Part shown: one piece after another, positions 7,931-44,247 of the stretch
Numbering within the stretch: the stretch's first letter is position 1
How the letters are laid out: the number at the start of each line of letters is the position of its first letter
Origin: Candidatus Binatus sp.
GTDB lineage: Bacteria; Acidobacteriota; Terriglobia; Terriglobales; Acidobacteriaceae
Assembly (NCBI GenBank): GCA_035482825.1
Contig: DATHQJ010000044.1
Location: 2,164 to 66,163, forward strand
Direction: 5' to 3'
Length of the DNA stretch: 64,000 nt
The notes under the pieces: model-generated
The model's input: only the letters and a program-made list of their open reading frames with translations
The model's database searches: none
Told to the model about the DNA's origin: nothing
Translations under genes and position numbers: made by a program

Positions 7931-8022
7931 ATGCAATTAGGATAGCGCAGGACTCGCGCGCGCAGTCAGATTTCCAGAAGCCGCACGACTATCCCCGCCG
8001 TACAATGTCAGGATCAGGAACG

Positions 8023-10911: not shown

Positions 10912-10930
10912 TCGCGTTCCTAAAACACTT

Positions 10931-26211: not shown

Positions 26212-26318
26212 CGTTTATCGTGAGATTCGCTTGCGGGTGGCCCGGTTGCTCAATTATGCTCAACTTCGAGGAAAGTCGTTATCTTGCGAGTTTCGCAGAG
26301 GCGATCATTGCCACATCA

Positions 26319-27968: not shown

Positions 27969-29747
27969 ATGAAGACAGACCCAAAACCCGGTCCCTGGAC
28001 TAGGCGCCGCTTGCTGCAAACACTGCCGGCGATCTTGGCGCCCGCGCTGGTGCCCGCGGAGCTTCGTGCCGTGGTTAGCCCGACGAATGCTGGCCCCCCG
28101 AAGCCCGCCCCGTTCTCCCGCTTCGTCGACGTCAGCGAGCCCGCGGGTCTTACCCAGACAATGTTCTACGGTGATTCAAGCCACAACACCTACATCATCG
28201 AGGTCAACGGCGCGGGATGCGCATTCTTTGATTACGACAACGATGGCTGGATGGACGCCTTCATCCTCGGAGGCCGCCGCCTCGAAGGCATTCCGCCCGG
28301 AGCCAGCAACCGTCTCTACCACAACAACCGCGACGGCACGTTCACCGATGTCACCGCGAAAGCTGGCCTGACCGATGCCGGCTGGGCCTGCGGCGTATGC
28401 GTCGGCGACTACAACAACGACGGCTTTGAAGACCTCTACCTTACCTACTACGGGCAGAACCGTCTCTACCGCAATAACGGCGACGGCACCTTCACCGACG
28501 TGACCGAAAAAGCCGGGCTGCATGACTCTCGTACTCGCTTTGGCTCGGGCTGCACCTTTGTCGATTACAACCGCGACGGCTTGCTCGATCTGTTCGTTTC
28601 CAACTACGTCGAGATCGATCTTGCCACCGCCCCCAAGCCATCGATGCAGGTGCCCAACTGTAATTTCGAGGGCGTGGCTACGAATTGCGGCCCGGGCGGC
28701 CTCGCCATGCCCTACCACTCTCTCTACCGCAATAACGGTGACGGCACGTTTACCGATGTTTCCAGGGAGTCGGGGGTCGCCGCGCTCCGCACTTCCTACG
28801 GCTTTACCGCGGTCGCCCTTGACGTCGACGAGGACGGCTGGCAAGACATCTTCGTGGCCTGCGATGCCACGCCCAGTCTTCTTCTGATGAACAATCACGA
28901 TGGCACGTTTCGCGAGGAGGGATTGTTGCGCGGCGTCGCTCTCGGAAGCTCTGGCGAACCCTTGGGCGGTATGGGAGTGGGAGTCGGCGACTTTGATCTC
29001 GATGGTCACATCGATCTGGTCAAGACTCACTTCGTCAACCAGGCCAACGGACTCTACCGCAACAACGGCAAGGGAGAATTCGACGATCTCACGTTCCGCG
29101 CCGGTCTGGGCGGCGAACGCCGCTTCAGTTGTTGGGGCACAGGATTGGTCGACCTCGACAACGACGGCCATCCTGACATCTTCATGGTTGCCGGAACGGT
29201 CGCCCCGGAACTGGAACGCGTTTATAACAAGTATCCAGCGCGGAATCCACGCCTGGTTTTCCGCAACCAGGGGAACGGAACTTTCGTTGAACTGGGCGAC
29301 GAGGCCGGTCCCGCCATCGCATCGCGCCACGTGAGCCGCGGGTGCGCCTTCGGCGACTTCGACAACGACGGCGACCTCGACATCCTCATCATGAACCGGA
29401 ATGAACCTCCCACGCTGCTGCGCAACGACGCTCCCACCGGCAATCATTGGATCAAGCTTCGCCTGGAAGGAACCAAGAGCAATCGCAGCGCGATCGGCGC
29501 CCGTGTGCTGGTGCGTTACAGCGGAAAAGTGCAGGCTCAATCCCTGACCAGCCAGTCGAGTTTTATCTCGGCGAACGATCCGCGCCTGCACTTTGGCCTG
29601 GGCGCCGCATCGAAAGCCAGCATTGAAATTCACTGGCCCGCCGGCACGACCGAAACCTTCGCCGATCTCCCCGCCGATCAACTCGTGACGATTCGCGAAG
29701 GCCAAGGCATCATCAAAGGACGCCCATTCAGCAAAGAAAAACTGTGA
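27969..29747 (+). CDS. CRTAC1-family protein (FG-GAP/VCBS repeats plus ASPIC/UnbV domain), paralog 2, Tat-type signal
   Basis: Twin-arginine leader WTRRRLLQTLPAILAPALVPAELRA. Repeats FDYDNDGWMDAF, DYNNDGFEDLY, DYNRDGLLDLF, DVDEDGWQDIF, DFDLDGHIDLV, DLDNDGHPDIF, DFDNDGDLDIL. UnbV-like end HWIKLRLEGTKSNRSAIGARVLV. Confidence 0.9.
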   Translation: MKTDPKPGPWTRRRLLQTLPAILAPALVPAELRAVVSPTNAGPPKPAPFSRFVDVSEPAGLTQTMFYGDSSHNTYIIEVNGAGCAFFDYDNDGWMDAFILGGRRLEGIPPGASNRLYHNNRDGTFTDVTAKAGLTDAGWACGVCVGDYNNDGFEDLYLTYYGQNRLYRNNGDGTFTDVTEKAGLHDSRTRFGSGCTFVDYNRDGLLDLFVSNYVEIDLATAPKPSMQVPNCNFEGVATNCGPGGLAMPYHSLYRNNGDGTFTDVSRESGVAALRTSYGFTAVALDVDEDGWQDIFVACDATPSLLLMNNHDGTFREEGLLRGVALGSSGEPLGGMGVGVGDFDLDGHIDLVKTHFVNQANGLYRNNGKGEFDDLTFRAGLGGERRFSCWGTGLVDLDNDGHPDIFMVAGTVAPELERVYNKYPARNPRLVFRNQGNGTFVELGDEAGPAIASRHVSRGCAFGDFDNDGDLDILIMNRNEPPTLLRNDAPTGNHWIKLRLEGTKSNRSAIGARVLVRYSGKVQAQSLTSQSSFISANDPRLHFGLGAASKASIEIHWPAGTTETFADLPADQLVTIREGQGIIKGRPFSKEKL

Positions 29748-29892: not shown

Positions 29893-31428
29893 ATGATGAA
29901 AACGGGCTCAGTTTCGCGACGTAAATTCCTCGGGCAAAGCGCCGCAGCGGCGATTGGCTTTTCGATTGTTCCGCGCCGCGTGTTGGGCGGCGTGGGCTAT
30001 GTCCCGCCCAGCGACAAAGTCAATATCGCATTCATTGGCGTTGGGGCTCAGGGATTGCGCGTCATGCTCCATTTCCTGAAAGAGCCTGACGTTCAGGGCG
30101 TGGCCGTCTGCGACGTCAATAAAACCGGCGCGAATTATCCGCAGTGGAGCACGCATGAGTTCTGCAACTCTGTCCGCAAGTTGCTCGGCGTTAGCAGCGG
30201 ATGGGATTGGCTCAGTCCCGATCAGCCCATCCAGTTGAGCCATACTCTCGCTGTCACCAGCGGCGTAGCCGGACGCGAACCTTGCCAGAAAATTGTCGAC
30301 GGCTATTATGGCGTACAGCAGCGGTCCGGCAAGTACAGCGGCTGCGCGGCCTACAACGACTTCCGCGAATTGCTCGAGAAGCAGAAGGATCTTGACGCCG
30401 TAGTCGTGTGTACCACCGACAACCTGCATGCCGCCGTTTCCGCCGCGGCGATGAAGAAGCGCAAACATGTTTTTTGTCAGAAGCCTTTAACCCACACCAT
30501 CTATGAGGCGCGCCGCATCGCCGAAATCGCTCGTGAAACTGGGGTCGCCACGCAAATTGCTGTCGGCAACCAGGCTTCCGAATCCACGCGCCAACTCTGT
30601 GAATGGATTTGGGCTGGCGCGATTGGCCCGGTGCGCGAAGTCAAGAACTGGTCGAGCCGTCCCTTCTGGCCGCAAGGCGTCGAACGCCCGAAGGAAACTG
30701 AAACCGTGCCCGAAGGTTTGGATTGGGATCTCTGGCTCGGCCCCGCGCCGCAGCGGCCTTTCAATCGCGCATACTTGCCGTTTGTATGGCGCGGCTGGAG
30801 CGAATTCGGCTGCGGCGCCCTGGGCGACATGGGTTCCTACAGTTTCGACACCATTTTTCGCGTGCTGAAACTGGAGGCGCCCGTGAGTGTGGAGTCGAGT
30901 TCCAGCGACCGCTATGACGAAACCTATCCGCTGGCCTCGATCGTCCGCTACAGCTTTCCCGCGCGTGGCGACATGCCACCGGTAAAATTCACGTGGTACG
31001 ACGGCGGCCTGAAGCCAGAGCGTCCCGAGGAACTGGAAGAAAATCGCCCGTTCAAGAACGAACAAGAAGGAGAGGAGGGCGAAGGCATGCTCTTCATCGG
31101 CGATCGCGGAAAAATCCTCTGCACCTTCAATGGCGGCAATCCCCAAATCATTCCGCAATCAAAAATGGACGCCTACAAGCCGCCGCCAAAAACTCTGCCC
31201 CGCTCTCCCGGCAATGAGCGCGAATGGCTCGACGCCTGCAAGGGCGGCAAAGTAAAACCGGGCGGCAATTTCGAATTCGAAGGCTTAGTCACCGAAACGC
31301 TGCTGCTGGGAAACGTAGCCAGTCGCATGGGACAAAAGCTGACATGGGATCGCTCGAAACTCAGCGTGAATTCTGATGTCGCCCAGAAATTCGTCCAGCC
31401 GGAACGCCGAAGCGGCTGGGAACTCTAG
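29893..31428 (+). CDS. Tat-exported Gfo/Idh/MocA family oxidoreductase
   Basis: ATG 29893 after GGGAG. Tat leader SRRKFLGQSAAAAIGFSIV. Rossmann start VNIAFIGVGAQG. Typical Gfo/Idh/MocA core ..DAVVVCTTDNLHAAVSAAAMKKRKHVFCQKPL. Confidence 0.88.
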   Translation: MMKTGSVSRRKFLGQSAAAAIGFSIVPRRVLGGVGYVPPSDKVNIAFIGVGAQGLRVMLHFLKEPDVQGVAVCDVNKTGANYPQWSTHEFCNSVRKLLGVSSGWDWLSPDQPIQLSHTLAVTSGVAGREPCQKIVDGYYGVQQRSGKYSGCAAYNDFRELLEKQKDLDAVVVCTTDNLHAAVSAAAMKKRKHVFCQKPLTHTIYEARRIAEIARETGVATQIAVGNQASESTRQLCEWIWAGAIGPVREVKNWSSRPFWPQGVERPKETETVPEGLDWDLWLGPAPQRPFNRAYLPFVWRGWSEFGCGALGDMGSYSFDTIFRVLKLEAPVSVESSSSDRYDETYPLASIVRYSFPARGDMPPVKFTWYDGGLKPERPEELEENRPFKNEQEGEEGEGMLFIGDRGKILCTFNGGNPQIIPQSKMDAYKPPPKTLPRSPGNEREWLDACKGGKVKPGGNFEFEGLVTETLLLGNVASRMGQKLTWDRSKLSVNSDVAQKFVQPERRSGWEL

Positions 31429-31483
31429 CCGCAAATGAAACGAACATAACGATGCACTCCACACCCTGAGTTAAGGAGAAATA

Positions 31484-32347
31484 ATGGCTTCAATTTCAAG
31501 AAGAGAATTTCTGAAGAGTGCCGCGACTTACACGGCCGCGGCCGGCCTACTTTCCTCAGGCGCGCTCAAGCTTCGCGCCGATCCTCTCGGCATGCCCATT
31601 GGATGCCAGACCTGGCCCGTCCGCGAAATGATCGCCAAGGACTTTCCCGGAACCATGAAGCAGCTTGCCGCTGCCGGATTTCAGACCATCGAACTGTGCT
31701 CACCCGTGGGTTACTCCGATCTCGGCTTCGGCGGCCTCGCCAAATATAAGGGAGCCGAGCTGCGAAAAATTCTCGGCGATGCCGGCGTCAGTTGCATCAG
31801 TTCTCATTTCGGCATCGAGGAACTTCGCGACGGTCAGCAGCGAGCCATTGATTGGGCGAAAGATATCGGCCTCACTCAAATGCTGGTGCCGAGTCTCGAC
31901 GGCCCCGAGAAGCCAACCATGGACGACGTGAAGCGTGCAGCCGACGAATACAACAAAATGGGCGAGCTAGCGGCCAAAGCGGGCATCCAGCAGGGACTTC
32001 ACAATGAGGGCTTCGAACTCTCGATGGTGGACGGCAAACGAACCTACGACCTGTTGTTCGACCTCCTCGACCCGAAACTGGTCAAGTTCCAGTTCCAGGT
32101 TTCCACCATCAGCAAGGGTTACGATGCCGCGGAATACTTCACGAAGTATCCCGGCCGCTTCATTTCCATGCACGTGCAAGGCTGGTCCTCGGAAACCAAG
32201 AAGCTGATGCCGGTAGGGCAGGACTCGCTGGATTGGAAGAAGATTTTCGCAGCCGCGAAAACCGGCGGCATCAAGAATTATTTCGTCGAAATGAGCCTGG
32301 AAATGATGACTGCCAGCGTTCCCTATTTACATGGTCTTCAGGTCTGA
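31484..32347 (+). CDS. Tat-exported sugar phosphate isomerase/epimerase (xylose-isomerase-like TIM barrel)
   Basis: AAGGAG RBS upstream. Tat leader SRREFLKSAATYTAAAGLL. TIM-barrel (AP_endonuc_2-like) pattern ..AGFQTIEL.., ..GLHNEGFE.., ..ISMHVQGW. Confidence 0.82.
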   Translation: MASISRREFLKSAATYTAAAGLLSSGALKLRADPLGMPIGCQTWPVREMIAKDFPGTMKQLAAAGFQTIELCSPVGYSDLGFGGLAKYKGAELRKILGDAGVSCISSHFGIEELRDGQQRAIDWAKDIGLTQMLVPSLDGPEKPTMDDVKRAADEYNKMGELAAKAGIQQGLHNEGFELSMVDGKRTYDLLFDLLDPKLVKFQFQVSTISKGYDAAEYFTKYPGRFISMHVQGWSSETKKLMPVGQDSLDWKKIFAAAKTGGIKNYFVEMSLEMMTASVPYLHGLQV

Positions 32348-33769
32348 CGCGGCCGCCGCGACAGAGGATCGCGCCAACTTGCGCCACCGGTAGTAGAACG
32401 GAATGCCCGCGACGATCACGAGTAGCCCAAGCGAGGACCGCACCGGGCGGGCCATCCATAGATTCATGGTCAACGCGACCGCCGCGACTAAGAAGAGAAT
32501 CGGCGTCCAGGGATAACCCCAGGCCCGGTACGGCCTCATCAGGTCGGGCTCGGTTCGCCGCAATCGCAGCACGGCGATAGCAGTCAGCGCGAAAAAAATC
32601 CAGACTGCAAAAACAAAGAGCGAATAAAGCTCTTCAAACGTTCCGGTCAATGCCAGTAGCGTCGCGACGGCTCCAAGAAAAACCAACGCTCCACTGGGAG
32701 TGCGGTACGAGGGCTGAATCCGCGTGGCAAATCGGAAAAAGACGCCGTCCCGCGCCATCGCATACGGAATGCGCGCGCCCGTCATGACCACGACGTGCAG
32801 CGCTCCCAACGCTGAAATTGCCATCGCCACCGTAAGCCAGGCTGCCCCACGCGATCCCGCAAATGACCGAACCACATCGGACGCCACGTGCTCGGAGGAG
32901 GCGATCTGCGCGAACGTCAACGCGTGAAAGTAAACCACATTCGCCAGCAGGTAGAGCCCGCCGACCGTGAGCAATCCAAGAATGATCGCAATCGGAATAT
33001 TCTTTTGCGGCTGCACTATTTCTTCGCCCAGGTCGCCCAGATCGTTGAACCCGTTGTACGCCCACATGGCCGGAACCAGGGCGGTCAGCACAGCGCCGAT
33101 CGTTCCCCAGTTGATCATGTTCCAACTCAAGTGCGCAGCCGACGGGCCGACCTCGATCCCATGCGCCGTTCCGAACAAAACGCCGGCGACCACGATCACA
33201 AGGATCGTTCCCATCTTCAAACATGTCAGCAGCACTTGAATTGCTCCGCCCATCTCGACACTCAAATAGTTAATCGCGGTCACCGCCAGCACCACCGACG
33301 CCGCCAGTGGCTGCGCTGCGGTGAACGTGAAGACATAATTTCCCAGATGTCCGCGGAACAAAGGCGTGCCCACAACCGGGAAAAGAAATCCGGCGAATCG
33401 CAGAAGTCCCGCGGCCAGCGTTGCCATGGCCACCGGCCGCTCCAGAAACGAACTCATCCATCCGAAGAGAAATCCCCAGAGCGGGCCAAGACCGCGAGTA
33501 AGATAAACGTAAGGCCCGCCCGCCTTGGGAAAGGCCGCACCCAGTTCGGCGTAGCAGAATGCGCCGCACAGCACGATGAGCCCGCCGAGAATCCACGCCA
33601 CAAACACCAGACCCGCCGAACCAACCGCGCGGGCCATGTCGCTGGTGACCAGAAAAACTCCCGTGCCAATGGTGTCGCCGATCACGATGGCGGTCGCGGC
33701 CCACAAACCTAATCCACGAACCAAATCAGTTTGCCCGGTTTTCGTTTGACGCGCCAGATCCGACCCCAT
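32327..33769 (-). CDS. APC-superfamily amino acid permease
   Basis: About 12 hydrophobic segments. N-terminal motif LGLWAATAIVIGDTIGTGVFL is typical of the amino acid/polyamine/organocation family. Confidence 0.88.
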   Translation of the reverse strand: MGSDLARQTKTGQTDLVRGLGLWAATAIVIGDTIGTGVFLVTSDMARAVGSAGLVFVAWILGGLIVLCGAFCYAELGAAFPKAGGPYVYLTRGLGPLWGFLFGWMSSFLERPVAMATLAAGLLRFAGFLFPVVGTPLFRGHLGNYVFTFTAAQPLAASVVLAVTAINYLSVEMGGAIQVLLTCLKMGTILVIVVAGVLFGTAHGIEVGPSAAHLSWNMINWGTIGAVLTALVPAMWAYNGFNDLGDLGEEIVQPQKNIPIAIILGLLTVGGLYLLANVVYFHALTFAQIASSEHVASDVVRSFAGSRGAAWLTVAMAISALGALHVVVMTGARIPYAMARDGVFFRFATRIQPSYRTPSGALVFLGAVATLLALTGTFEELYSLFVFAVWIFFALTAIAVLRLRRTEPDLMRPYRAWGYPWTPILFLVAAVALTMNLWMARPVRSSLGLLVIVAGIPFYYRWRKLARSSVAAAASDLKTM

Positions 33770-33937
33770 TTCGCCTTCGAAGGTTCAGAGAGCCTACTCT
33801 CAGCGCTGTAGCGCGTCAACCAGCGCCCGTCTCGCCGATTCAGGATCAGGATGAAGCCCGGCCACGCTTTGGCCGGGCCGCAATTCCGCGTTATCATCCT
33901 AAGCACCGCGGTTCGAGGCCTGTGCAGAAGTCAGGAT

Positions 33938-33979
33938 TGAGCGAATCATTATGAGCGAATCGTGATGTCCGAATCATGC
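33938..33979 (+). repeat. Three tandem 14-nt units (TGAGCGAATCATTA / TGAGCGAATCGTGA / TGTCCGAATCATGC) overlapping the start codon of the D-TA-like gene
   Basis: Read directly. Units 1 and 2 match at 12/14 positions, units 1 and 3 at 10/14. ATGs at 33951, 33965 and 33976 fall in three different frames. Confidence 0.75.
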
Positions 33980-35163
33980 TGAACAAATTCAACTGGGATC
34001 AACGCTACCGAGTGTCCGTCATCGAAGACGTGCTGACTCCCGCGCTGGTTCTATATCCCGATCTCATTGCCGCGAACATTCAACAAACCCTGAATCTGCT
34101 GGAGGGTGACGCCGACCGCTGGCGCGCGCACATCAAGACCGCGAAGCTCGGACTCACTCTGCGAATGCTAGTAGAACGCGGCATCCGCAACTTCAAATGC
34201 GCGACTACGCTGGAATTGCTAGTGGCCTGCCGAAACGGCGCCACCGACGTGCTGCTGGCCTATCCCGTGATGGGCGCGAACGCGCGCCGCACACAGGATA
34301 TAGCGCGGCAGTTTCCCGAGGTTCGCATTTCCGTTCTTGCCGAAAACGAAGACCAGGTGCGGCAATGGCATGCCAGCCGCATGGGAATTTTTCTCGACAT
34401 CAATCCGGGCATGAATCGCACCGGAATCGATCAGAGGCAGACCGATAGAGTGGTCAGACTGGCCCGCGCGATTACCGATGCCGGCCTGGAGTTTCGCGGC
34501 CTGCACTACTATGACGGCCAATTCGGTGGCCTGATCGACGGCGAAGGAAATAGCGAACGGACGCAGGCGGCACACCGCGGCTATGATCGCCTGCTGGAAA
34601 TTGTGAACGAACTCAATCGCTCCGGCGTTAGTGTGTCCGAAGTGATCACGTCAGGCACGCCCACGTTCCCCAGTTCGCTCACCTACGAAGGTTTTCGCCG
34701 CGGCAATTTCCTCCATCGCATGTCGCCCGGAACCATCGTTTATTGCGACGCCAGCAGTCTCGATCAACTCCCGAGCAAATACGGCTATCAGCCGGCGGCG
34801 CTGGTGCTGACGCGCGTAGTGAGCCACCCGCATCCGGGGATCGTCACCTGCGACGCCGGCCACAAAACCGTCTCCGCCGATGCCGGCGTGCCGACGTGCG
34901 TGGTCCTCGGCCATCCCGAACTCACTCCGCTCTCGCCCAGCGAAGAGCATCTTCCTCTCAAAGTGGCGCAGGAGGCGACTGCTCCACAGGTTGGAGAAAT
35001 GTTGTACCTGCTACCGCGACATATTTGCCCAACGGTGAACAATTTCGATTGTGCGCTCCTGGCGAAAGATGGCAACATCGACGCGCTGGAGCATGTTTCG
35101 GCGCGGGGCCGCGAAGCGCCGTTGTTGAAGATGGTAGAACAAGGCGTCTCCGCTCAAAGCTAG
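33976..35163 (+). CDS. D-TA family PLP-dependent enzyme (D-threonine aldolase / D-serine dehydratase-like, alanine-racemase-N fold)
   Basis: TPALVLYPDLIAANIQ.. N-terminus, putative PLP-Lys context RAHIKTAKL, FKCATTLE, and a C-terminal D-serine-dehydratase-like segment ..CDAGHKTVSAD..EEHLPL. Confidence 0.8.
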   Translation: MLNKFNWDQRYRVSVIEDVLTPALVLYPDLIAANIQQTLNLLEGDADRWRAHIKTAKLGLTLRMLVERGIRNFKCATTLELLVACRNGATDVLLAYPVMGANARRTQDIARQFPEVRISVLAENEDQVRQWHASRMGIFLDINPGMNRTGIDQRQTDRVVRLARAITDAGLEFRGLHYYDGQFGGLIDGEGNSERTQAAHRGYDRLLEIVNELNRSGVSVSEVITSGTPTFPSSLTYEGFRRGNFLHRMSPGTIVYCDASSLDQLPSKYGYQPAALVLTRVVSHPHPGIVTCDAGHKTVSADAGVPTCVVLGHPELTPLSPSEEHLPLKVAQEATAPQVGEMLYLLPRHICPTVNNFDCALLAKDGNIDALEHVSARGREAPLLKMVEQGVSAQS

Positions 35164-35176
35164 CCGATGATGGGAG

Positions 35177-36562
35177 TTAGCGGCCGGCAGGTGGAACGTT
35201 CTGATTCAGCCGAAAGAAATTATTGGGATCATAGCGCGACTTAACCGCTACCATGCGTTCCCATCGCTGGTAGGCCTCAGGCACACGATCCTGCTCATCG
35301 CCGCTCATGAAATTGATGTACACACCCGGTTTCATCGCCGGACGAAGCTGATTGAAGAGGGCGCGAATCCAGGCAATGTTACCGGCATCCCCGGATGGAT
35401 CCGCCCAGTTCGCCAGCAAGTTCAGGATGAACGGAGCGCTGCGATCCCCGAATGCGGTCTCGTCCGCGCCGACTTGCGCCGCCGCGCCTCCAAGATAGGC
35501 CAGTTCAATCTGTGTTTCCGGCGACGGAATCGTGGCCACCGCGTCCACGAGGCGATCGATCGTGCCGTTGTCGAGATAAACGAAATATCCCGACTTGGTG
35601 TAATAGCGCCGGCCGTGCGGAAATTCCGAGTCGGCCATGGTTTGCAAGTTCATGAACGACACAATCTTGCTGCTCACAGAAGTTGAATGGCACAGGGAAA
35701 GCGCGCGATCCAGATACGGACGCCCGACGTCAGGGTCACCCGTCCAAATCAGCGAACTGCCAGCCACCGGCCGCCCGCGAAGTTCCGCCGGCACCTTCTT
35801 CGCCTGCGGCGCCAGGCGTAGATCAACGTTCCACTTCAGGTCGAGAGGCGCTTCAGCCATGAAGTCTCTCCACAGTTCCAGTAGCCGGCGAATTTCGGCT
35901 TCGCCTGACAGGCCCTGGGCAAGCACCACAGCGGTCAGCGGATGGAGTTTCACCTCAAACTCGGTGACCACTCCGAAGTTACCGCCGCCTCCGCGCAAGG
36001 CCCAGAACAAATCCGCGTTCTCGGTAGCGTTGGCACGCACGGCCGAACCATCCGCCGTGACCAGACTGAATCCTTCGACGTTATCGCATGACAATCCGAA
36101 GCGCCGGGTGAGCCATCCCGTTCCGCCGCCCAGGATCAGCCCAGACGCTCCCGTATGGGAAACAACTCCGGCAGGAAAAACCAGACCGGCTTTTTGCGTT
36201 GCGGTGTCGATCGACCCCAGCAGACAGCCTCCGGCAATTCTGGCGCGGCGCGCCTCGCCATCGACAGTGACCTGTCGCATTCTCGACAGGTCGATCACCA
36301 GGCCGCGATCGCACGTGCTAAAACCCGCTAGACTATGCCCTCCGCAACGGACGGCGGTGAGAATTCCAATCTCAGAGGCCGCGCGAACCGCGCTCTGCAC
36401 ATCACTGACATCTGCGCAACGTGCTATCAGACCGGGCGCACGATCCACCATGCCATTCCAAATGACGCGCGCGTCTTCATACCCATCGTGGCCGGGGCGA
36501 AGCAAATCACCTTTGAATCTGCGGTGAAGCGAAGAATAAACCTCTTCGCTGGCGTCAACCAT
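35177..36562 (-). CDS. FAD-linked oxidase with berberine-bridge-enzyme (BBE) C-terminal domain
   Basis: Starts MVDASEEVYSS (ATG 36562). FAD_binding_4 motif AVRCGGHSLAGFS and GASGLILGGGTGWL. BBE-type end RYDPNNFFRLNQNVPP. The upstream 311 codons of ORF 35177..37498 overlap the permease gene in another frame and are not coding. Confidence 0.88.
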   Translation of the reverse strand: MVDASEEVYSSLHRRFKGDLLRPGHDGYEDARVIWNGMVDRAPGLIARCADVSDVQSAVRAASEIGILTAVRCGGHSLAGFSTCDRGLVIDLSRMRQVTVDGEARRARIAGGCLLGSIDTATQKAGLVFPAGVVSHTGASGLILGGGTGWLTRRFGLSCDNVEGFSLVTADGSAVRANATENADLFWALRGGGGNFGVVTEFEVKLHPLTAVVLAQGLSGEAEIRRLLELWRDFMAEAPLDLKWNVDLRLAPQAKKVPAELRGRPVAGSSLIWTGDPDVGRPYLDRALSLCHSTSVSSKIVSFMNLQTMADSEFPHGRRYYTKSGYFVYLDNGTIDRLVDAVATIPSPETQIELAYLGGAAAQVGADETAFGDRSAPFILNLLANWADPSGDAGNIAWIRALFNQLRPAMKPGVYINFMSGDEQDRVPEAYQRWERMVAVKSRYDPNNFFRLNQNVPPAGR

Positions 36563-36588
36563 CTCGAGCTCCTTGCAGTCTTTAGTGC

Positions 36589-38004
36589 TTATGTTTCTCT
36601 CCGCCCTCGCCAATAAAACACTGAAATAATTCCCAGGAAAACGAAAAACGCCGGAACCGACCAGCGCAATCCGTCTACAAAAAATGTCGTTCCCGAGATC
36701 GCAAGCAGCAACCCAATCCCGACCACGGTAAACAATGGGTGCCCCCGCAGACGCATCGGCAAACTCACCAGCCGCTCGTTCGTTATGCCTTTGCGGAAAC
36801 GAAGGTGTGAGCTGAGAATCACCATCCACACGAAAAGCATTCCGGCAACAGCGGTTCCGTAGAGCATGAGAAAAGCATTCTTCGGGGCAAAGATAGCCAG
36901 CAGAATGGCTGCGATAATCCCCGCGGTGGAAGCCAGCAACGCGCGATGCGGCACTCCGTTGCCGCTCACCTTGCCCATCCAATCCGGGGCATAGCCCCCG
37001 TGGCCGAGTGAGAAAAGCATTCGCGTTGAGAGGTACAGATTCGTATTTACGCTGGAGAGCGCCGCCGTCAGCACCACGAAGTTCATGATCGCGGCGGCAA
37101 AGGGTATGTGCGCCGCAGCGAACGCCGTGACAAACGGACTCCCGGAAAGCCCGGACGAACCGCCCGTCTGGTTCCACGGAACCATCGTCACCATAATCGC
37201 GATCGCCAGCACGTAGAACAAAATCAGACGCCACACAATGTTCCGCATGGCGTGTGGAATCGTCACTTCCGGATGTTCGGCCTCCCCCGCGGTGACTGCG
37301 ATGATTTCCACTCCCATGTAACTGGTGACGGTTATTGTGAGTGAAAGCCAGACTCCTTTCCATCCCGTGGGCAGGAACCCTCCATGTTGGGTCAGATTGG
37401 CCAAGCCAATCGCGGCATGAGAACCAAAACCGAAGATCAACGATAATCCCGCGACGATGAACCCAACAATCGCCGCCACTTTGATCATGGCGAACCAATA
37501 TTCGAACTCACCCAGGCGGTTGACCTGCATGGAATTGAGCGCCACCAGAGCGGCTGAGACCAACACCACCCAAATCCATTGCGGAACATTCGGAAACCAG
37601 AAAGAGATGTAGATTCCCGCCGCTGTGACTTCCGCCCCGATGGCGATGATCTGCGCAACTCCGTAAGTGGCTCGAACCGAAAACCCCGCCCAGGGATTAA
37701 GATATTTTTCCGCGTAAACTCCGAATGCGCCCGCAACCGGATGCACCACGGCCATCTCTGCCAGCGCATAGGACATGATCAGCGCAATGCCCGCGCCCAG
37801 AAGATAGGAGAGGATGACCGCGGGTCCAGCCAGCCGAATGGTGACGCTGCTGCCCAAAAACAAACCGACACCAATCGCGCCCCCAATGGCCATCATAGTG
37901 AGCTGCCGTTGGCTCAACCGGCGCTGCAGACCGTCTCCACCGCGCATCGGAGGTGTCTCGCCGGCCGGTGTGACCCCAACCGCTGGACGTGGTTGATCAG
38001 TCAT
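36589..38004 (-). CDS. Amino acid permease (APC superfamily, AroP/LysP-like)
   Basis: Starts MTDQPRP.. (ATG 38004, overlapping the upstream stop in tATGACTGA). Signature LSQRQLTMMAIGGAIGVGLFLGS and 12 hydrophobic segments. Confidence 0.88.
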   Translation of the reverse strand: MTDQPRPAVGVTPAGETPPMRGGDGLQRRLSQRQLTMMAIGGAIGVGLFLGSSVTIRLAGPAVILSYLLGAGIALIMSYALAEMAVVHPVAGAFGVYAEKYLNPWAGFSVRATYGVAQIIAIGAEVTAAGIYISFWFPNVPQWIWVVLVSAALVALNSMQVNRLGEFEYWFAMIKVAAIVGFIVAGLSLIFGFGSHAAIGLANLTQHGGFLPTGWKGVWLSLTITVTSYMGVEIIAVTAGEAEHPEVTIPHAMRNIVWRLILFYVLAIAIMVTMVPWNQTGGSSGLSGSPFVTAFAAAHIPFAAAIMNFVVLTAALSSVNTNLYLSTRMLFSLGHGGYAPDWMGKVSGNGVPHRALLASTAGIIAAILLAIFAPKNAFLMLYGTAVAGMLFVWMVILSSHLRFRKGITNERLVSLPMRLRGHPLFTVVGIGLLLAISGTTFFVDGLRWSVPAFFVFLGIISVFYWRGRRET

Positions 38005-39166
38005 AGCTGCCGACGCTGGCAGGATCAAGGACCATGAGATCGATATTTTTCTTGAGAACCTCGACCACTGCCTGCACATCGTCCACGGTGTTGTACACGT
38101 GGAACGATATGCGCAAGCCGTCATGACGATTCGATGCCACGATATCGCTTGCGGCGAGCTTCTGCACCAGCAAGGTTGAATCTTTGCATTGCAGCACCAC
38201 CAGCGGCCCCCCGCTGTCAGCGGGCGTTTTGGCGCGAATGCCCAGATCGCGAGCGCTGCTCAAGAGCGATTGCGTGAGGGTCTTGATGTGAGCCGCGACA
38301 TTCTCGAGGCCGATCTCCCGCAACAGTTGGATTCCGGGCAGCGCCGCATACACATTGGGCACGGACGGGGAACCCGACTCGAACCTTCGCGCGGTTAGAG
38401 ACAGATCGAAATGTTGCGGGTCGTACGCGAACGGATTGGCTTGCCCAAACCATCCCGTGACAGTAGGAACCAGCGATGAAACGATTTCTTTGCGAACATA
38501 CATAAAAGCCAGACCGGGAGGACCGAGCAGATATTTGAGGGTTCCGGTCAAGTAAAAATCCAGATCGAGTGCTTTCACGTCAACCCGGCGGGTTCCGCAG
38601 TCCTGGTAATCATCGAGCATGACGAGGGCGCCGGCGCGATGGGCAATCTGCGTGATGGCGCCTACGTCGGACCGAAACCCGTTCTTGAAACAAACATGTG
38701 TAAGCGGCACGATGAGCGTGTTGCGGTCGACCATCTCTTCGTAATTCACCGCCGGAATGCAATTGCCCTCGGCGCATACAAACTGCACCTCGGCGCCTCG
38801 CCCCCGTTGTCCGAGCCACACATGGCCCATGGTAGGAAACTCGAACTCGCCCATTACAACTTTTTTCCGTTCCTGGAAACTCAGCGCGCTGGCGACCCCA
38901 TTCACGCCCGCCGAAACGCTGGTAACAATCGCAACCTCATTTGGGCTCGCATTGATGAATTGCGCAAAAGCCGTTCGTGCCGCCTCGTAACGCTCCACCC
39001 ACGATTCCCACGGAGAACCGTGTTCGTGCCAACTCGCCATGAAGTCTTCCAGCCCGGCCTGAACCGCATCTGATAACGGCCCCTGCGAGCAACTGTTGAG
39101 ATATATTTTGCGCTGGAAGATGCTGAAGCGGGAGCGGATCTTCTGAATTTCCTTGTCGGTCAGCAT
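37997..39166 (-). CDS. Class V-fold PLP-dependent enzyme, kynureninase-like
   Basis: [23 protein letters not shown].. N-terminus and PLP-Lys context [22 protein letters not shown] resemble the kynureninase pattern (..YLDGNSLG.. / ..YKYLNGGPG..) as I recall it. Confidence 0.7.
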
Positions 39167-40422
39167 GAGGTCTTTATTTCAGCCAAGGCGCTTCCGAATC
39201 GGCGCACCTCTTCGACCGTATTGTAGTGCACCAGTGATGCGCGGACTGCGCCACTCTCCATGGTGAGCCCGAGTCGCCGCATCAGCCGCGGTGAGTACAT
39301 GTGGCCGTCGCGTACGCCGATATTCTGTCTCGCGAGTTCTTCGGCGACCCTTGCCGCAGATACATTCAGCAAGTTGAAACACAACGTTGGCACTCGTTGA
39401 CCAATCCGCTCTGCTTCCTTCACGCCGTAGACGACGGCGCCGCACTCCTCGAGCACGCGCAGCATTTCGAGCGAAAGCGATTCTTCGTAGACCCGGATCG
39501 CCTCGAAGGCCCGTTGCAGGGCGGTTCTTCGCGATATCGATTCCGATTCCTTCGTTGCATACTTCCCCGCCACACTTCGCCCCAGAGTTTCCAGGTAGCG
39601 CACGGCGGCGCCCATCCCCGCCACATTTTCGTAAATAAACGTGCCGGCCTCGATTTTGCCCGGTGGCTCGTCGGAAATGAAGTCCTCGCGAAACGTCGGC
39701 AGTTTCTGCAGCAGCTCACGGCGTCCCCAAAGAAATCCCATGTGCGGAGCGAAAATCTTATACCCCGAGCACACCAGGTAATCGCAGTCGAAGGCCTGCA
39801 CGTCGATCGCTGCGTGAGGGCCGTAGTGGACGGAATCGAGGAAGATTTCAGCCCCGGCCGCGTGCGCCACCGCTGCCGCCGCCGCGACATCCACGATCGA
39901 ACCGATGGCGTTCGAAGCCAGCGTGCACGCCACCAGACGCGTCGTCGAGGACACTAGAGGAACGAGATCGTCAACGTGCAGGTTCCCGTCGTCCCTCATC
40001 TTCCACCATCGGATTCGCGCGCCGTTTCGCTCCAAAGCCAGCCAGGTGGCGATGTTCGCCTCATGGTCCATATCGCTGACGACAATCCCGGTCCGCTTAC
40101 CGAGCGTTTGCCCAATCGCCAAGCTGACCAATCGGATGAAGGATGTGGCGTTCATGCCGAAAGCGATTTCGCTTGGGTCGCGCGCGTTCACCAGATCGGC
40201 GACGCTCTGTCGCGCGCGCACAATCGTCTCGTCAACTTCACGGCTCTTGGCATAGCGCCCGCCGCGCTGCACATTGCACTCGAGCAGATGATGATTCACC
40301 GCGTCCAGCACCATCTGTGGGACCTGCGCGCCCGCCGCATTGTCGAAAAAGATGAATCCCGGAGTCTGAGTCAGCGCAGGAAAAGCTGCACGTACAGTTT
40401 CAATGGGAAAGTCAGTATTCAC
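39160..40422 (-). CDS. Class V aminotransferase / cysteine desulfurase-like PLP enzyme
   Basis: [25 protein letters not shown].. resembles a SufS/CsdA-like N-terminus. Lys context [18 protein letters not shown]. The start is uncertain (GTG 40422 or TTG 40551). TTG 40551 would leave only 25 nt to the divergent gene. Confidence 0.78.
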
Positions 40423-40576
40423 TCGGGACGAACCTTTGGGATTCAGAACGCTCTGGGATTTAGCTTCCAACCTGTGCTCCTGGTCAAAATCTGAAAAGTC
40501 AGCCCGGCCGTCTTGCAAAATGAGCAGCGCCAAACCTATACTCCGCTGCAATACTCGTCAACCTGAAAGCCCAAAG

Positions 40577-41089
40577 ATGCCCGTCTCCTCGACCAACTCC
40601 GAGCTCATCTACGACGCACTGAAGGAGTGCGACATCCGCCTGGTCTCGGCCCTGCCCGAAACCTGGCTGGTCCATCTCATCCGCTTGGCCGACGATGATC
40701 CTGCGATGATTCTAGTGCGACTGGCAAAAGAAGAGGAAGGCGTCGGCATCTCCGCCGGAGCGCACTTTGCCGGAGTCAAGTCGGCCATGCTGATGCAGAA
40801 CCACGGTTTCCTGGCATCCATCAACGGCATCGTTTCGTTCGCGCATCTCTACAGGATTCCTCTGTTGATGCTCATCAGCTACCGCGGCACGATTGGCGAA
40901 CGCGACCCCTGGCAAACCCAGGGCGGCAACGTCACTGAACCGCTCTTGCGTGCGCTGCGCATCCCTTACTTTTTCCTGGATTCGCTGGACACCGTGAAAA
41001 AGCGAATCCGCCAGGCGCAAACCCTCGCCGAAAGCAGTTTGCAGCCGGTTGCGCTTCTTCTAACGCGCGACCTGATGTGGGAGGAGTAA
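40577..41089 (+). CDS. ThDP-dependent decarboxylase alpha subunit (sulfopyruvate/phosphonopyruvate decarboxylase ComD-like, TPP_enzyme_N)
   Basis: MPVSSTNSELIYDALKECDIRLVSALPE.. with catalytic-Glu context KEEEGVGISAGAHFAG and ..IPLLMLISYRG. The ORF-track start 40403 overlaps the divergent gene, so ATG 40577 is chosen. Confidence 0.78.
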   Translation: MPVSSTNSELIYDALKECDIRLVSALPETWLVHLIRLADDDPAMILVRLAKEEEGVGISAGAHFAGVKSAMLMQNHGFLASINGIVSFAHLYRIPLLMLISYRGTIGERDPWQTQGGNVTEPLLRALRIPYFFLDSLDTVKKRIRQAQTLAESSLQPVALLLTRDLMWEE

Positions 41090-41095
41090 GGACGA

Positions 41096-41668
41096 ATGTT
41101 GCGCATTGATTGCCTTCGATCGGTCTATCCTGAACTGGAAGACTGCCTCGTCGTCACCATCATGGGCGCTGTCGCGGCTGAACTCCACTCGGTGGGACAC
41201 CGTCCGAATTTTTTCTACCTGCAACATGCGATGGGATTGGCGTCTTCGACGGGGTTGGGCCTGGCTCTGTGCCTGCCAGAGCAGAAAGTGATCGTCTTCG
41301 ACGGCGACGGCTCGCTTCTGATGAACCTTGGCAGCCTCACCACGATGGCACGTTATCGTCCCAAGAAATTGGTCCACGTTGTATTCGACAACGAAAGTTT
41401 GCTTTCGGTCGGCGGGTTCCCCACCGCGACCAGCACTGGCTCCGACCTGGAAGGGATCGCCCGTGCCGCCGGCATTCCCCGAGTGGTCACAGTGCGCAGC
41501 GTGGAGAGTTTCAAAGCCGCCGTCACCGATGCCATGCAAGCCGGCGACCTGACCACTATCATCGCCAAGGTCGAAGCCAAGGGCCCCGCCGCCTACGTCA
41601 CAGACCTGGCATTGCTGGAAAATCGATTTCAATTCCGCCGTCATATCCAATCGCTGAAAACGCGCTAA
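41096..41668 (+). CDS. ThDP-dependent decarboxylase beta subunit (ComE-like, TPP_enzyme_C)
   Basis: ThDP/Mg motif GDGSLLMNLGSLTTMARYRPKKLVHVVFDN. The gene starts 6 nt after the alpha-subunit stop. Confidence 0.8.
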   Translation: MLRIDCLRSVYPELEDCLVVTIMGAVAAELHSVGHRPNFFYLQHAMGLASSTGLGLALCLPEQKVIVFDGDGSLLMNLGSLTTMARYRPKKLVHVVFDNESLLSVGGFPTATSTGSDLEGIARAAGIPRVVTVRSVESFKAAVTDAMQAGDLTTIIAKVEAKGPAAYVTDLALLENRFQFRRHIQSLKTR

Positions 41669-41747
41669 CGGCGGCGACCGCAGCGCGCTCGCGTGAGCAC
41701 GGAGCGTCGCATGAATCTTAATCGGACGGACCTTAAGAGGAGTCCCA

Positions 41748-42524
41748 ATGTCTTCAGTCTTAGCCACACTGCTCGAGGAACTCGCCATCGGCCGGTTACG
41801 GGTCGTCGATCTGACCCAGCCCTTGAGTCCGCAGACACCTCTGCTGCCGCTGCCTGCACAGTGGAACAACACGCCCGCATTCAAAATCTGGGAACTGTCG
41901 CGCTACGACGAGCGCGGCCCCGCCTGGTACTGGAACGGCTTCGAGACCGGCGAACATACCGGCACACATTTTGATGCTCCCGTGCACTGGGTCTCCGGCA
42001 GAGACCTTCCGGAGAACACCGTCGATCGCATCCCGCCGAAGAAATTTATCGGTCCCGCGTGCGTGATTGACATCAGCGCCGACGTAGCGACGAACCCAGA
42101 CTTTTTACTGACGCCAGAACGAGTCCGCCAATGGGAAAAACAGCACGGTCAAATCCCGCAGGGAGCGTGGGTGCTCCTGCGAACCGACTGGTCGAAGCGG
42201 AAAGATCCAAAAGACTACATCAACCTGAAAGATAACGGACCCCACACTCCCGGATTGGCCAAGGAAACATCCGCTCTGCTCGCTCAGGAGCGCAATATCC
42301 TGGGTCTCGGCGTAGAAACGGTCGGGACCGATGCGGGTCAGGCCGCCACCTTCGATCCACCTTTCCCCAACCACTACCTCATGCACGGCAGCGGCAAATT
42401 TGGCCTCGCAAGTCTTTCGAACCTTGACCAACTTCCGCCCACCGGTGCCATCGTTATCGCCGCCCCACTGAAAATCGTAGGCGGATCTGGCAGTCCTCTG
42501 CGGGTCATCGCCGTAACCCCATGA
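41748..42524 (+). CDS. Cyclase-family protein (kynurenine formamidase/arylformamidase-like)
   Basis: AGGAG RBS 6 nt upstream. Hallmark metal motif HTGTHFDAPVHW. Confidence 0.85.
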   Translation: MSSVLATLLEELAIGRLRVVDLTQPLSPQTPLLPLPAQWNNTPAFKIWELSRYDERGPAWYWNGFETGEHTGTHFDAPVHWVSGRDLPENTVDRIPPKKFIGPACVIDISADVATNPDFLLTPERVRQWEKQHGQIPQGAWVLLRTDWSKRKDPKDYINLKDNGPHTPGLAKETSALLAQERNILGLGVETVGTDAGQAATFDPPFPNHYLMHGSGKFGLASLSNLDQLPPTGAIVIAAPLKIVGGSGSPLRVIAVTP

Positions 42525-42621
42525 AGCATGTTTGAATTGAAGAACGCGCGACGCATCGCCCAGCTAATCACAATCCATTCACTGGGTACGCAAATCCGCC
42601 CTTGCCTTGCCACCTAGCCAA

Positions 42622-44247
42622 TCATGTTGCCCACTGCATCGCCGTGTAGGAGCGCGCCGGCACTTCAAATTTTGTGCGCGCGCCGCTGCTTGAGACCTTT
42701 TCCGAAGATTGAGGCGCAACTCGCTGCGGCGCTTCGAAGGTGTTGAAGGCTTTCAGATCGCTCCCCGTGAGCACCCTGGAATTCAGCAACTTGCCCGGCA
42801 TCCGATCCTGCCAATTGATCTCAACCGTTTGCGCCTTCACCAAGTCCCGATTGAGGATGAACAGCGACAACTTTCCATCTTCCGGGCTCAGAGTTCCGGC
42901 AACATCGAGGTAAGGAACCTGACCCATTTCCGAGACTGCGTAAGTGGGCGATTCCACCAGCAACTGCAGTACGTTTCCGCGCGCCCACTGCAGTGCCCAG
43001 CTATATGGATAATAAATCGTTTGCTGGAGCAGTCCCTTGGCATTGGTGACGATCGGGGCGATCACGTTCACGAGTTGTGCGAGACATGCAATTTTGATGC
43101 GATCCGCGTTCCTTATCAGAGTGTTGAGGATTCCTCCCACGAGCAACGCGTCTTCCAGGTCATACACCTCCTCCAGGAGATGCGGCGCTTCGTGCTCGCG
43201 CCCGTTTGTGGCATCGCCGGTGCGGGCGCGATACCATACGTTCCATTCGTCAAACGACAGCCAGAGCTTCTTGGGCGACCGCTTGTGTCCGCGCACCAGA
43301 TCGCACACCGCAAGCGTTTCTGCGATCTGCTGCTCCATGCTCAAATTCATGGCCACAAACTTTGCGCTGTCTTCGCCGGTTTCTCCCTTGGTGTTGCCAA
43401 TGTATCGATGTAGAGACAGGGCATCGACATATTCGTAACACTGCTCCAGGACTTCGCGGTCCCATTCCAGATAGGTTGGCATACCCGGACCACTGGATCC
43501 GCATGCAATCAGTTTGAGAGAGGGATCGACAGCGTGCATCTGGCGGGCGGCGTCTTGTGCTTTCAAACCGTATTCGCCCGCCGTCATGTGCCCGATCTGC
43601 CAGGGGCCGTCCATCTCATTGCCCAGGCACCAGTGCTCCACTTTGTAGGGCTGTTCAATTCCGTGGCTGCGTCGCAGGTCGCTCCACTTGGTTCCCTTCT
43701 CGATGTTGCAGTATTCGACCAGCGCCGCCGCCCGCTCCGGCGTCCCTGTGCCGAGGTTCAGCCCCATCAACGGACGGGCCCCGACGATCTTGCTCCACGC
43801 CATAAACTCGTCGGTCCCGAACTGGTTGGTGTCGACCGTGTTCCAGGCCTTGTCGAGTATTCGCGGACGATCCTTCTTTGGTCCGACGCCGTCGAGCCAG
43901 TTGTATCCGGACACAAAATTGCCGCCAGGATAGCGGATGATCGGAACCCCCAGCTGGCGCACTTCCTCCATCACGTCCTTGCGAAACCCGTTGGCATCCG
44001 ACAGCGTCGATCCCGGATCATAAATGCCCTCATAGATCGCGCGCCCGAGATGCTCCAGGAACGAACCAAACAGATTGCGGTCCAAAGCCGCAATCGTGCG
44101 ACGGGAATCGATGTAGATGCGCGTGCCGCCCGCATCAGCCGTCGCCGTTTGACCCCATGCGAAACGGCTCCCGACCAGGTTCGCGGAGCAGGCAATGCCG
44201 GCAGCGGCTGATTGCTGAAGGAACTTTCGTCTTGTTTCGGAAAACAT
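42622..44247 (-). CDS. abfA: Alpha-L-arabinofuranosidase, GH51, Tat-type leader
   Basis: GGAGGG RBS and leader TRRKFLQQSAAAGIA. GH51 acid/base motif LGNEMDGPWQIGH and nucleophile motif LSFDEWNVW. Confidence 0.9.
   Translation of the reverse strand: MFSETRRKFLQQSAAAGIACSANLVGSRFAWGQTATADAGGTRIYIDSRRTIAALDRNLFGSFLEHLGRAIYEGIYDPGSTLSDANGFRKDVMEEVRQLGVPIIRYPGGNFVSGYNWLDGVGPKKDRPRILDKAWNTVDTNQFGTDEFMAWSKIVGARPLMGLNLGTGTPERAAALVEYCNIEKGTKWSDLRRSHGIEQPYKVEHWCLGNEMDGPWQIGHMTAGEYGLKAQDAARQMHAVDPSLKLIACGSSGPGMPTYLEWDREVLEQCYEYVDALSLHRYIGNTKGETGEDSAKFVAMNLSMEQQIAETLAVCDLVRGHKRSPKKLWLSFDEWNVWYRARTGDATNGREHEAPHLLEEVYDLEDALLVGGILNTLIRNADRIKIACLAQLVNVIAPIVTNAKGLLQQTIYYPYSWALQWARGNVLQLLVESPTYAVSEMGQVPYLDVAGTLSPEDGKLSLFILNRDLVKAQTVEINWQDRMPGKLLNSRVLTGSDLKAFNTFEAPQRVAPQSSEKVSSSGARTKFEVPARSYTAMQWAT

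Follow-up and report, generated by a model that had tools for sequence, protein, structure and literature searches.

Which pathway is encoded by the amino-acid-processing genes at positions 32327–42524 of a 64,000-nucleotide stretch of contig DATHQJ010000044.1 from Candidatus Binatus sp.? The whole stretch is called the window below. An initial annotation had described these genes as a single island of ten genes in three transcription units, in which two permeases import an unusual amino acid for catabolism or salvage. We found that the island is a composite of two modules. Seven genes (35177–42524) form a recurrent cluster that encodes an amino-acid permease (APC2), an EncM-like flavoprotein, two class V pyridoxal phosphate (PLP) enzymes, here named KynL and VC1184-like, the two subunits of a putative thiamine diphosphate (ThDP) decarboxylase, and a predicted isatin hydrolase (IH). 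The other two genes belong to an independent module. We tentatively propose, with somewhat less than even confidence, that the seven-gene cluster, which is typical of uncultured Terriglobia, serves the catabolism or salvage of a tryptophan-derived amino acid with an o-aminophenyl or oxindole group.

Gene content and modularity of the locus

The gene families of the region were called with Pfam and NCBIfam models, and the two sets of models agreed with the labels assigned initially (kynureninase-like, SufS-like, BBE-type, ComD/E-like, and cyclase family). Two divergent intergenic regions, 33770–33975 and 40471–40576, are present as described, and none of the nine encoded proteins contains a helix-turn-helix or another regulator domain recognized by Pfam, in line with the reported lack of a regulator. 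The gene and transcription-unit counts had to be corrected. The region contains nine genes, and since every intergenic gap is shorter than 210 bp, there is no space for a tenth. A 773-residue open reading frame (ORF) at 35177–37498 is the 461-residue BBE-type gene over-extended into the permease gene. The strand pattern (−, +, −−−−, +++) defines four blocks of genes instead of three.

The conservation of the genes was examined in two collection scans. The first scan, of one genome per species, was anchored on the KynL protein and was limited to the 80 closest loci, with 74–89% identity. All of these loci come from metagenome-assembled genomes (MAGs) of Terriglobia, apart from two that are labelled otherwise. 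A presence matrix calculated by tblastn showed that the seven genes at 35177–42524 recur across the 80 loci, whereas the permease APC1 and the D-threonine-aldolase-like gene were found in none of them. The second scan, of metagenomes, was anchored on the D-threonine-aldolase-like protein and was likewise limited to the 80 closest loci. APC1 is the divergent neighbour of the D-threonine-aldolase-like gene in 43 of the 52 loci with room for it, and no gene of the seven-gene cluster occurs in any of the 37 loci in which the downstream sequence extends for 3 kb or more. Several of these metagenome loci carry the left flank of the window, which encodes a GFO-family oxidoreductase and a TIM-barrel protein. 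The pair at 32327–35163 is thus an independent module that merely abuts the seven-gene cluster in this genome.

The expected co-conservation of a single island therefore failed in part, and the gene count together with the modularity rules out a single ten-gene island. Because APC1 belongs to the independent pair, the argument that two importers serve one pathway does not apply. The D-threonine-aldolase-like protein itself contains both the Ala_racemase_N and D-ser_dehydrat domains and scores 117 against the BhcC model, which has a cut-off of 690. Among proteins of solved structure, D-threonine aldolases are nearest to it (82–95 bits), within an overall range of 63–95 bits for solved relatives.

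The seven-gene cluster consists of a minus-strand operon (VC1184-like, KynL, APC2, EncM-like), in which the junctions overlap or nearly overlap, and of an operon of the two ThDP-enzyme genes and IH that runs divergently from a 106-bp region. All-against-all clustering of ORFs showed that none of the flanking gene families is common to more than nine of the 80 loci, and the cluster therefore occupies differing neighbourhoods in different species. KynL and APC2 are the invariant core of the cluster, and APC2 adjoins KynL in 68 of the 69 loci with room. The EncM-like gene is present in 61 of 69 such loci, and the VC1184-like gene in about 60 of 67. Two MAGs labelled Verrucomicrobiae and Binatia (L038 and L083) also carry the cluster, with 77–83% protein identity to the window; these copies are likely the result of mis-binning or else of recent transfer.

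Table 1 Features of the region 32327–42524 of the window.
Feature	Position	Strand	Length (residues)	Family or remark
APC permease APC1	32327–33769	−	480	PF13520/PF00324
D-threonine aldolase / D-serine dehydratase (DSD1) family, fold-type III PLP	33976–35163	+	395	PF01168 + PF14031
EncM-like BBE/VAO-family flavoprotein	35177–36562	−	461	PF01565 + PF08031
APC/AAT-family amino-acid permease APC2	36589 to ~38004	−		PF00324, 336 bits
KynL, divergent kynureninase-like class V PLP enzyme	37997–39166	−	389	PF00266 + weak KYNU_C
VC1184-like class V PLP enzyme	39160–40470	−	436	TIGR01976; TTG start; first gene of the operon
Divergent control region between VC1184-like and ThDP-alpha genes	40471–40576	none		promoter-like hexamers on both strands
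Putative ThDP decarboxylase, alpha (PYR-domain) subunit	40577–41089	+	170	PF02776
Putative ThDP decarboxylase, beta (PP-domain) subunit	41096–41668	+	190	PF02775
Predicted isatin hydrolase (IH), cyclase family	41748–42524	+	258	Pfam Cyclase PF04199

Enzymes of the seven-gene cluster

The cyclase-family protein is a predicted isatin hydrolase. It matches the crystallised isatin hydrolase A of Labrenzia (LaIHA) with an E-value of 1e-98 and 56% identity, and the Ralstonia isatin hydrolase with 324 bits. The key residues of isatin hydrolases, including those of the mononuclear Mn site, are His69, His73, Asp75, His79, Asp193, and His207 in LaIHA numbering (PMC6117287), and all six are identical in the aligned window protein. 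The aromatic isatin pocket, formed by Trp59, Trp61, Trp80, and Tyr204/Phe209, is kept, with Phe in the place of Tyr204; the segments AWYW, HW, and PPF align. Members of the IH subgroup contain GLQC or GLAS at the position of Gln219, where the N-formylkynurenine formamidase KynB has a Glu that builds a second Zn site (PMC6117287). In the window protein, this segment is KFGLASLSNL and hence of the GLAS type, as in LaIHB. The identity as KynB (TIGR03035) was rejected on the basis of the IH-type residues and motif and of a score of 31.8 against a cut-off of 223.

The product of IH is an aryl 2-oxo acid, and a ThDP-dependent decarboxylating enzyme is therefore the expected next step. We infer that the two ThDP subunits encoded beside IH form an isatinate decarboxylase, an enzyme of which we found no description in the literature searched. 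The beta subunit contains the GDG-X26-N motif for ThDP binding. Membership in the sulfopyruvate decarboxylase family ComDE or in the phosphonopyruvate decarboxylase family was rejected, since both subunits score under the cut-offs: the alpha subunit reached 128.5 against 147.95 for ComD (TIGR03845), the beta subunit 134.4 against 221.5 for ComE (TIGR03846), and the two subunits 74.6 and 120.1, respectively, against 312.5 for phosphonopyruvate decarboxylase (TIGR03297). Other members of this split ThDP family are located in unrelated catabolic clusters for heterocycles or organic acids.

Independent support for a ThDP-dependent step after IH is provided by Proteobacteria, in which a ThDP enzyme of another type accompanies IH. 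In Novosphingobium, the IH gene is directly followed by an alpha/beta gene pair for a ThDP-dependent 2-oxoacid:ferredoxin oxidoreductase of the indolepyruvate:ferredoxin oxidoreductase (IOR) type. The ThDP enzyme of the window is non-homologous to the IOR type and fills the same place beside IH. In Burkholderia sp. SFA1 (L185, 999–13701) and Caballeronia sp. SBC1 (L186), IH belongs to a MarR-controlled cluster with IOR alpha and beta genes, which also encodes a thioesterase, an aryl-CoA hydroxylase of the salicylyl/2-aminobenzoyl-CoA type, and a gentisate-type dioxygenase. These Burkholderiaceae clusters appear to lead from isatin to 2-aminobenzoyl-CoA by a route that has not been described. 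The Novosphingobium IH ortholog, with its indolepyruvate:ferredoxin-oxidoreductase-like alpha and beta genes, is carried on a plasmid of Novosphingobium sp. KACC 22771 (L183, 21248–25597). A KynL homologue occurs in Novosphingobium as well; the two genes are 16 kb apart, and a common operon of KynL and IH was rejected there.

The best solved sequence match of KynL is the Pseudomonas kynureninase, with which it shares the motifs T.KYL.G.PG, GWFG, and LTHV..K.G. A ten-residue segment of KynL aligns with the kynureninase motif TYKYLNGGPG, and the segment TGWFGQ with the motif SGWFGH; the Pfam KYNU_C model scores 19.6 against a cut-off of 27. The AlphaFold2 model of KynL has a pLDDT of 96. A fold search of the PDB with this model did not discriminate between functions, as kynureninase (1qz9; TM 0.87, rmsd 2.3) was found at the level of SufS (TM ~0.85–0.87). 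At the site of the SufS catalytic cysteine, KynL is gapped or lacks a Cys. The two class V enzymes of the cluster score 228 and 122 against the SufS cut-off of 475. Cysteine desulfurase (SufS/CsdA/IscS) and selenocysteine lyase were rejected for both, because neither contains the catalytic Cys.

The relatives of KynL link its family with tryptophan oxidation. Among the 150 best-matching representatives of KynL homologues clustered at 50% identity, five are fused to tryptophan 2,3-dioxygenase (TDO), and single representatives carry an alpha/beta hydrolase or an amidohydrolase domain; the homologues fused to or clustered with TDO have 31–38% identity. Two of the class V–TDO fusions (L187, 6294–13458; L188, 4704–10560) cluster with a second TDO, a flavoprotein resembling kynurenine monooxygenase, and a class IV aminotransferase, and the former cluster additionally encodes a cyclase-family protein and a methyltransferase. 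Both clusters resemble a specialised (hydroxy)kynurenine pathway with a non-canonical kynureninase family. These fusions and clusters imply that members of the KynL family take the place of kynureninase, despite failing the kynureninase hidden Markov model. Non-fused KynL homologues adjoin amino-acid transporters and amidases. No TDO was found in the window.

The VC1184-like enzyme covers the full TIGR01976 model with a score of 517.2 against a cut-off of 352.35. To our knowledge, this family (VC1184 family, "cysteine desulfurase-like protein") has no assigned function. The closest solved relatives are FGM3 (189 bits) and UstD (147 bits). FGM3 is a retro-aldolase that acts on 4-hydroxy-arginine, a gamma-hydroxy amino acid, and Tyr225 has been proposed as its base (PMC10055224). 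In the VC1184-like enzyme, GHMY replaces the GHHC motif of SufS, which holds in all 55 orthologues in which the motif was found, and the lysine motif is GYK, so that a Tyr precedes the PLP-binding Lys as in FGM3 and UstD. A homologue in a cyanobacterium abuts a 2-oxoglutarate (2OG)-Fe dioxygenase. Relatives of both class V enzymes adjoin uptake ABC transporters and amidohydrolases.

The EncM-like protein aligns with EncM, the flavin-N5-oxide oxygenase of enterocin biosynthesis, over its full length with 439 bits and 48% identity. Teufel et al. in 2013 reportedly identified His78 of EncM as the site of covalent FAD attachment and Tyr249, Gln353, Glu355, and Asn383 as active-site residues. Of these residues, the window protein keeps His78, Gln353, Glu355, and Asn383, and has Asp in the place of Tyr249. 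Relatives of the EncM-like protein are also encoded on plasmids, in a genuine type II polyketide synthase (PKS) cluster in Pseudonocardia and as a stand-alone gene in Sinorhizobium, two contexts that give no clue to the function in the window. The scores of APC2 are far under the cut-offs of all NCBIfam transporter equivalogs, and its gene may start at 37893, 37947, or 38004.

Proposed pathway and competing explanations

Based on the enzyme families and their gene contexts, a degradation route can be proposed, of which we infer both the substrates and the order of the steps. APC2 would import a tryptophan-derived amino acid, for example dioxindolylalanine or kynurenine. KynL would then split the bond between C-beta and C-gamma by the enamine chemistry common to kynureninase, UstD, and FGM3, releasing L-alanine and a ring fragment; where present, the VC1184-like enzyme would perform the same cleavage. 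The ring fragment would be isatin in the case of the gamma-hydroxy substrate dioxindolylalanine, and anthranilate in the case of kynurenine. IH would open isatin to isatinate (2-aminophenylglyoxylate), from which the two-subunit ThDP enzyme would form 2-aminobenzaldehyde. The EncM-like protein may oxygenate C3 of oxindolylalanine or tryptophan to provide the gamma-hydroxy substrate, or may convert the aldehyde to anthranilate; its role is the weakest assignment of the scheme.

Individual steps of the proposed route have counterparts in the literature. PLP enzymes can couple C-beta of alanine with isatin to give a gamma-hydroxy amino acid, and the enamine intermediate is common to kynureninase and UstD (PMC13397446). 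Dioxindolylalanine appears to be the sole amino acid among those we considered that would yield isatin in one such cleavage. When tryptophan is oxidised non-enzymatically, the major products are kynurenine, N-formylkynurenine, oxindolylalanine, and two diastereomers of dioxindolylalanine (PMC8228365). Given these several products and two diastereomers, the two cleaving enzymes could serve gamma-keto and gamma-hydroxy substrates, respectively, or one diastereomer each. Downstream of isatin, formulae matching isatinate and 2-aminobenzaldehyde were reported between the product of IadI and anthranilate in a preprint on the Variovorax iad pathway (PMC12633357). We found no description of the gene combination of the cluster in the literature searched.

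The scheme could be extended to a TDO-independent route for tryptophan or its oxidation products, in which EncM-type C3 oxygenation gives dioxindolylalanine, KynL and the VC1184-like enzyme perform the retro-aldol cleavage, possibly on one diastereomer each, and IH and the isatinate decarboxylase, which would be the first dedicated enzyme of its kind, yield 2-aminobenzaldehyde, from which anthranilate and tryptophan would be regenerated. We consider this complete route, and with it the specific passage through dioxindolylalanine, unlikely. The candidate substrates named in the initial annotation can be narrowed as well: aryl-substituted amino acids, specifically tryptophan-derived ones, are retained, and D-, beta-hydroxy-, sulfonated, and phosphonated amino acids find no support for the seven-gene cluster.

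Several observations weigh against the degradation of a tryptophan-derived amino acid by the seven genes. KynL scores 75.7 against a cut-off of 246.4 for the kynureninase KynU model (TIGR01814), and in its sequence a Leu replaces the Tyr that precedes the PLP lysine in kynureninase. The closest named relatives of the ThDP enzyme are sulfopyruvate decarboxylases, with 38–44% identity to annotated ComE. About one quarter of the loci lack the ThDP and IH genes, about 10% lack the VC1184-like gene, and a few lack the EncM-like gene, and therefore the cluster does not encode an obligatory single linear pathway of seven steps. Neither an aldehyde dehydrogenase nor a regulator is encoded in the cluster, and it contains no enzyme that would oxidise tryptophan, except possibly the EncM-like protein. 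A bacterial dioxindolylalanine pathway is without precedent in the literature searched. Finally, the conservation data all come from a single class (Terriglobia MAGs), so shared ancestry contributes to the conservation.

The alternative that survives best is the convergence of two separate functions. In this explanation, KynL and APC2, with or without the VC1184-like enzyme, cleave imported kynurenine-type amino acids to anthranilate and alanine, and the ThDP–IH operon independently detoxifies isatin that originates from the oxidation of indole or auxin; a common anthranilate pool or inducer would keep the units clustered. We regard it as possible, if on the unlikely side. It is consistent with the TDO fusions and contexts that place the KynL family in the role of kynureninase, and with the roles of IH orthologues elsewhere in the catabolism of indole and indole-3-acetic acid (IAA) instead of amino acids. 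The ThDP and IH genes also come and go together, irrespective of the four-gene operon: among the 67 loci with enough upstream sequence, all three genes are present in 50 and none in 17, with no partial case. However, no indole or IAA oxygenase was found nearby, and three features of the cluster connect the two units.

The first feature is the control region. On the plus strand, it contains the promoter-like sequence TTGCAA-18-TATACT at 40513–40542, and on the minus strand TTGACG (the reverse complement of 40556–40561) with TATAGG. The two divergent sets of hexamers overlap and have a TATA core in common, and an alignment of 49 loci shows that both sets are conserved, along with the AGGAG that precedes the TTG start codon of the VC1184-like gene. 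The overlap suggests that the binding of RNA polymerase to the two predicted promoters is mutually exclusive or jointly controlled. Generic promoter and terminator scans gave a signal equal to background, and neither an operator-like palindrome nor a regulator was identified for 40513–40561.

The second feature is the VC1184-like protein, whose identity to that of the window is 74–88% in loci with the ThDP and IH genes and 65–68% in loci without them, whereas the identities of KynL, APC2, and the EncM-like protein shift by just 2–4 points between the two groups. The 65–68% subtype is restricted to loci lacking the ThDP and IH genes, so that the subtype of this enzyme tracks the isatin branch.

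The third feature is provided by reduced loci. In six species (L042, L059, L063, L064, L082, and L084), the VC1184-like gene is cleanly gone and the ThDP and IH genes are kept, so that the gene of the ThDP alpha subunit lies about 200 bp from KynL (around 9800–10000 of these loci). Another locus (L040, 9480–9964) retains a remnant of the VC1184-like gene corresponding to residues 1–62 and 329–432, which represents an internal deletion in progress. Two of the six loci, L063 and L064, are reduced to exactly KynL–APC2 and the ThDP–IH operon, and they therefore tie KynL directly to the isatin branch. Promoter sharing, subtype co-variation, and these two reduced loci speak for a functional link between the two units rather than mere co-location.

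Biosynthesis is a less probable explanation than the catabolism of a tryptophan-derived amino acid, and we consider it improbable. An aldehyde made by the ThDP enzyme would be coupled to an aspartate-derived enamine by the UstD-like VC1184 enzyme, the EncM-like protein and KynL would tailor the product, and the permease would export it. UstD is a decarboxylative aldolase, EncM is itself biosynthetic, and ThDP decarboxylases yield aldehydes. However, APC2 is a member of the AAT family of uptake permeases, IH acts in degradation, and no non-ribosomal peptide synthetase or other thiotemplate, PKS, ATP-grasp, or ligase gene was found at the locus. Furthermore, the VC1184-like gene, which would encode the coupling enzyme, is the one lost in about 10% of the loci that keep the remainder, and relatives of both PLP enzymes are encoded beside uptake systems for amino acids and amidohydrolases. 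The initial preference for catabolism or salvage over biosynthesis is thus upheld, with one permease in the operon.

The use of sulfur-, sulfonate-, or phosphonate-containing amino acids (cysteate, cysteine sulfinate, or phosphonoalanine), which would be converted to an aldehyde via sulfopyruvate or phosphonopyruvate, is very improbable: the closest named models of the ThDP subunits are indeed ComD/ComE and phosphonopyruvate decarboxylase, and the class V enzymes match SufS/CsdA models, but all of these scores are under the cut-offs, the catalytic cysteine is missing from both class V enzymes, the window contains no gene for Xsc, a sulfite exporter, PhnW/PhnX, or a C-P lyase, and the third, co-inherited gene of the ThDP operon encodes an IH with an aromatic pocket.

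Surroundings and relationship to known systems

The closest relatives of the genes of the window are all from Terriglobia MAGs (Ca. Sulfotelmatobacter, Ca. Angelobacter, and Ca. Acidoferrum), and the window matches the JGI contig Ga0210407_10000110 from a forest-soil metagenome. The flanks of the region are unrelated to it and encode proteins of sugar metabolism, TPR and FG-GAP proteins, an outer-membrane protein, and cytochromes. An Rfam scan of 31000–44000 at E ≤ 1 gave no match. Outside the region, an IlvD/Edd-family dehydratase gene of the pentonate type (46048–47756, plus strand) is split by a frameshift near 46530–46560 into a 171-residue N-terminal and a ~407–436-residue C-terminal ORF. 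The same split is present in two independent assemblies; possible explanations are a pseudogene, a site of recoding, or an assembly error common to both. The window also contains repeated sets of genes that look like paralogous modules, encoding FG-GAP/UnbV_ASPIC (9214–10959 and 27969–29747), TPR (6824–9204, 19510–20730, and 26013–27923), and multihaem cytochrome c-like proteins (20705–21814 and 24991–26211).

By analogy with characterised systems, the seven-gene cluster may work like a hybrid of the kynurenine pathway, the isatin branch of auxin and indole catabolism, and the hydroxylase/retro-aldolase logic of the Fgm enzymes. With the kynurenine pathway (KynA TDO, KynB, and KynU), it shares a metal-dependent amidohydrolase of the cyclase family and a class V PLP enzyme predicted to release alanine. 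Unlike that pathway, the window contains no TDO, the cyclase-family protein is of the IH type instead of the KynB type, KynL is under the kynureninase cut-off, and further proteins are encoded in the cluster, namely a putative ThDP decarboxylase, a permease, and the FGM3/UstD-like and EncM-like enzymes.

With the isatin branch of indole and IAA degradation, the cluster shares an orthologous IH, with 55–61% identity to the enzymes of Labrenzia and Ralstonia and to IadI of the iad pathway, for which isatinate, 2-aminobenzaldehyde, and anthranilate were reported as intermediates. In contrast to this branch, the cluster lacks a Rieske or indole oxygenase, CoA ligase, thiolase, and MarR genes, and contains an amino-acid permease, two PLP enzymes predicted to cleave carbon–carbon bonds, and the split ThDP enzyme.

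The VC1184-like enzyme resembles the enzymes of the Fgm1–3 guanidinoacetate route of fusaoctaxin biosynthesis and UstD in its lack of the desulfurase Cys and in the Tyr before the PLP Lys. The Fgm logic, in which an oxygenase generates a gamma-hydroxy amino acid that a PLP enzyme splits into a carbonyl compound and alanine, would fit the combination of EncM-like and VC1184-like proteins. However, the Fgm and UstD enzymes are fungal and biosynthetic and act on arginine or aspartate substrates, the scores of 147–189 bits are well short of orthology, and the candidate oxygenase partner in the cluster is a flavoprotein instead of a P450 or 2OG enzyme.

The ThDP enzyme has the two-subunit PYR + PP architecture of ComDE and phosphonopyruvate decarboxylase and ~40% identity to annotated ComE, but differs from them in its sub-threshold scores, its co-inheritance with IH, and a context devoid of sulfonate or phosphonate genes. 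The EncM-like protein resembles EncM in its sequence and in four of the five listed residues. It differs in the replacement of Tyr249, in the absence of a type II PKS or acyl carrier protein, and in its location in an operon with a permease and PLP enzymes.

The composite nature of the island matters for experiments built on the assumption of ten genes. If the proposed route is correct, the isatinate-converting ThDP enzyme would account for the step from isatinate to 2-aminobenzaldehyde, which has been seen in auxin catabolism and for which no enzyme was named in the literature searched. EncM-type flavin chemistry would gain a role outside polyketide biosynthesis, and functions would be provided for three large families that lack annotation, namely the class V family that includes the TDO fusions, TIGR01976, and the non-sulfonate branch of split ThDP decarboxylases. 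The cluster would represent a new fate of tryptophan-derived amino acids in one of the most abundant groups of soil bacteria.

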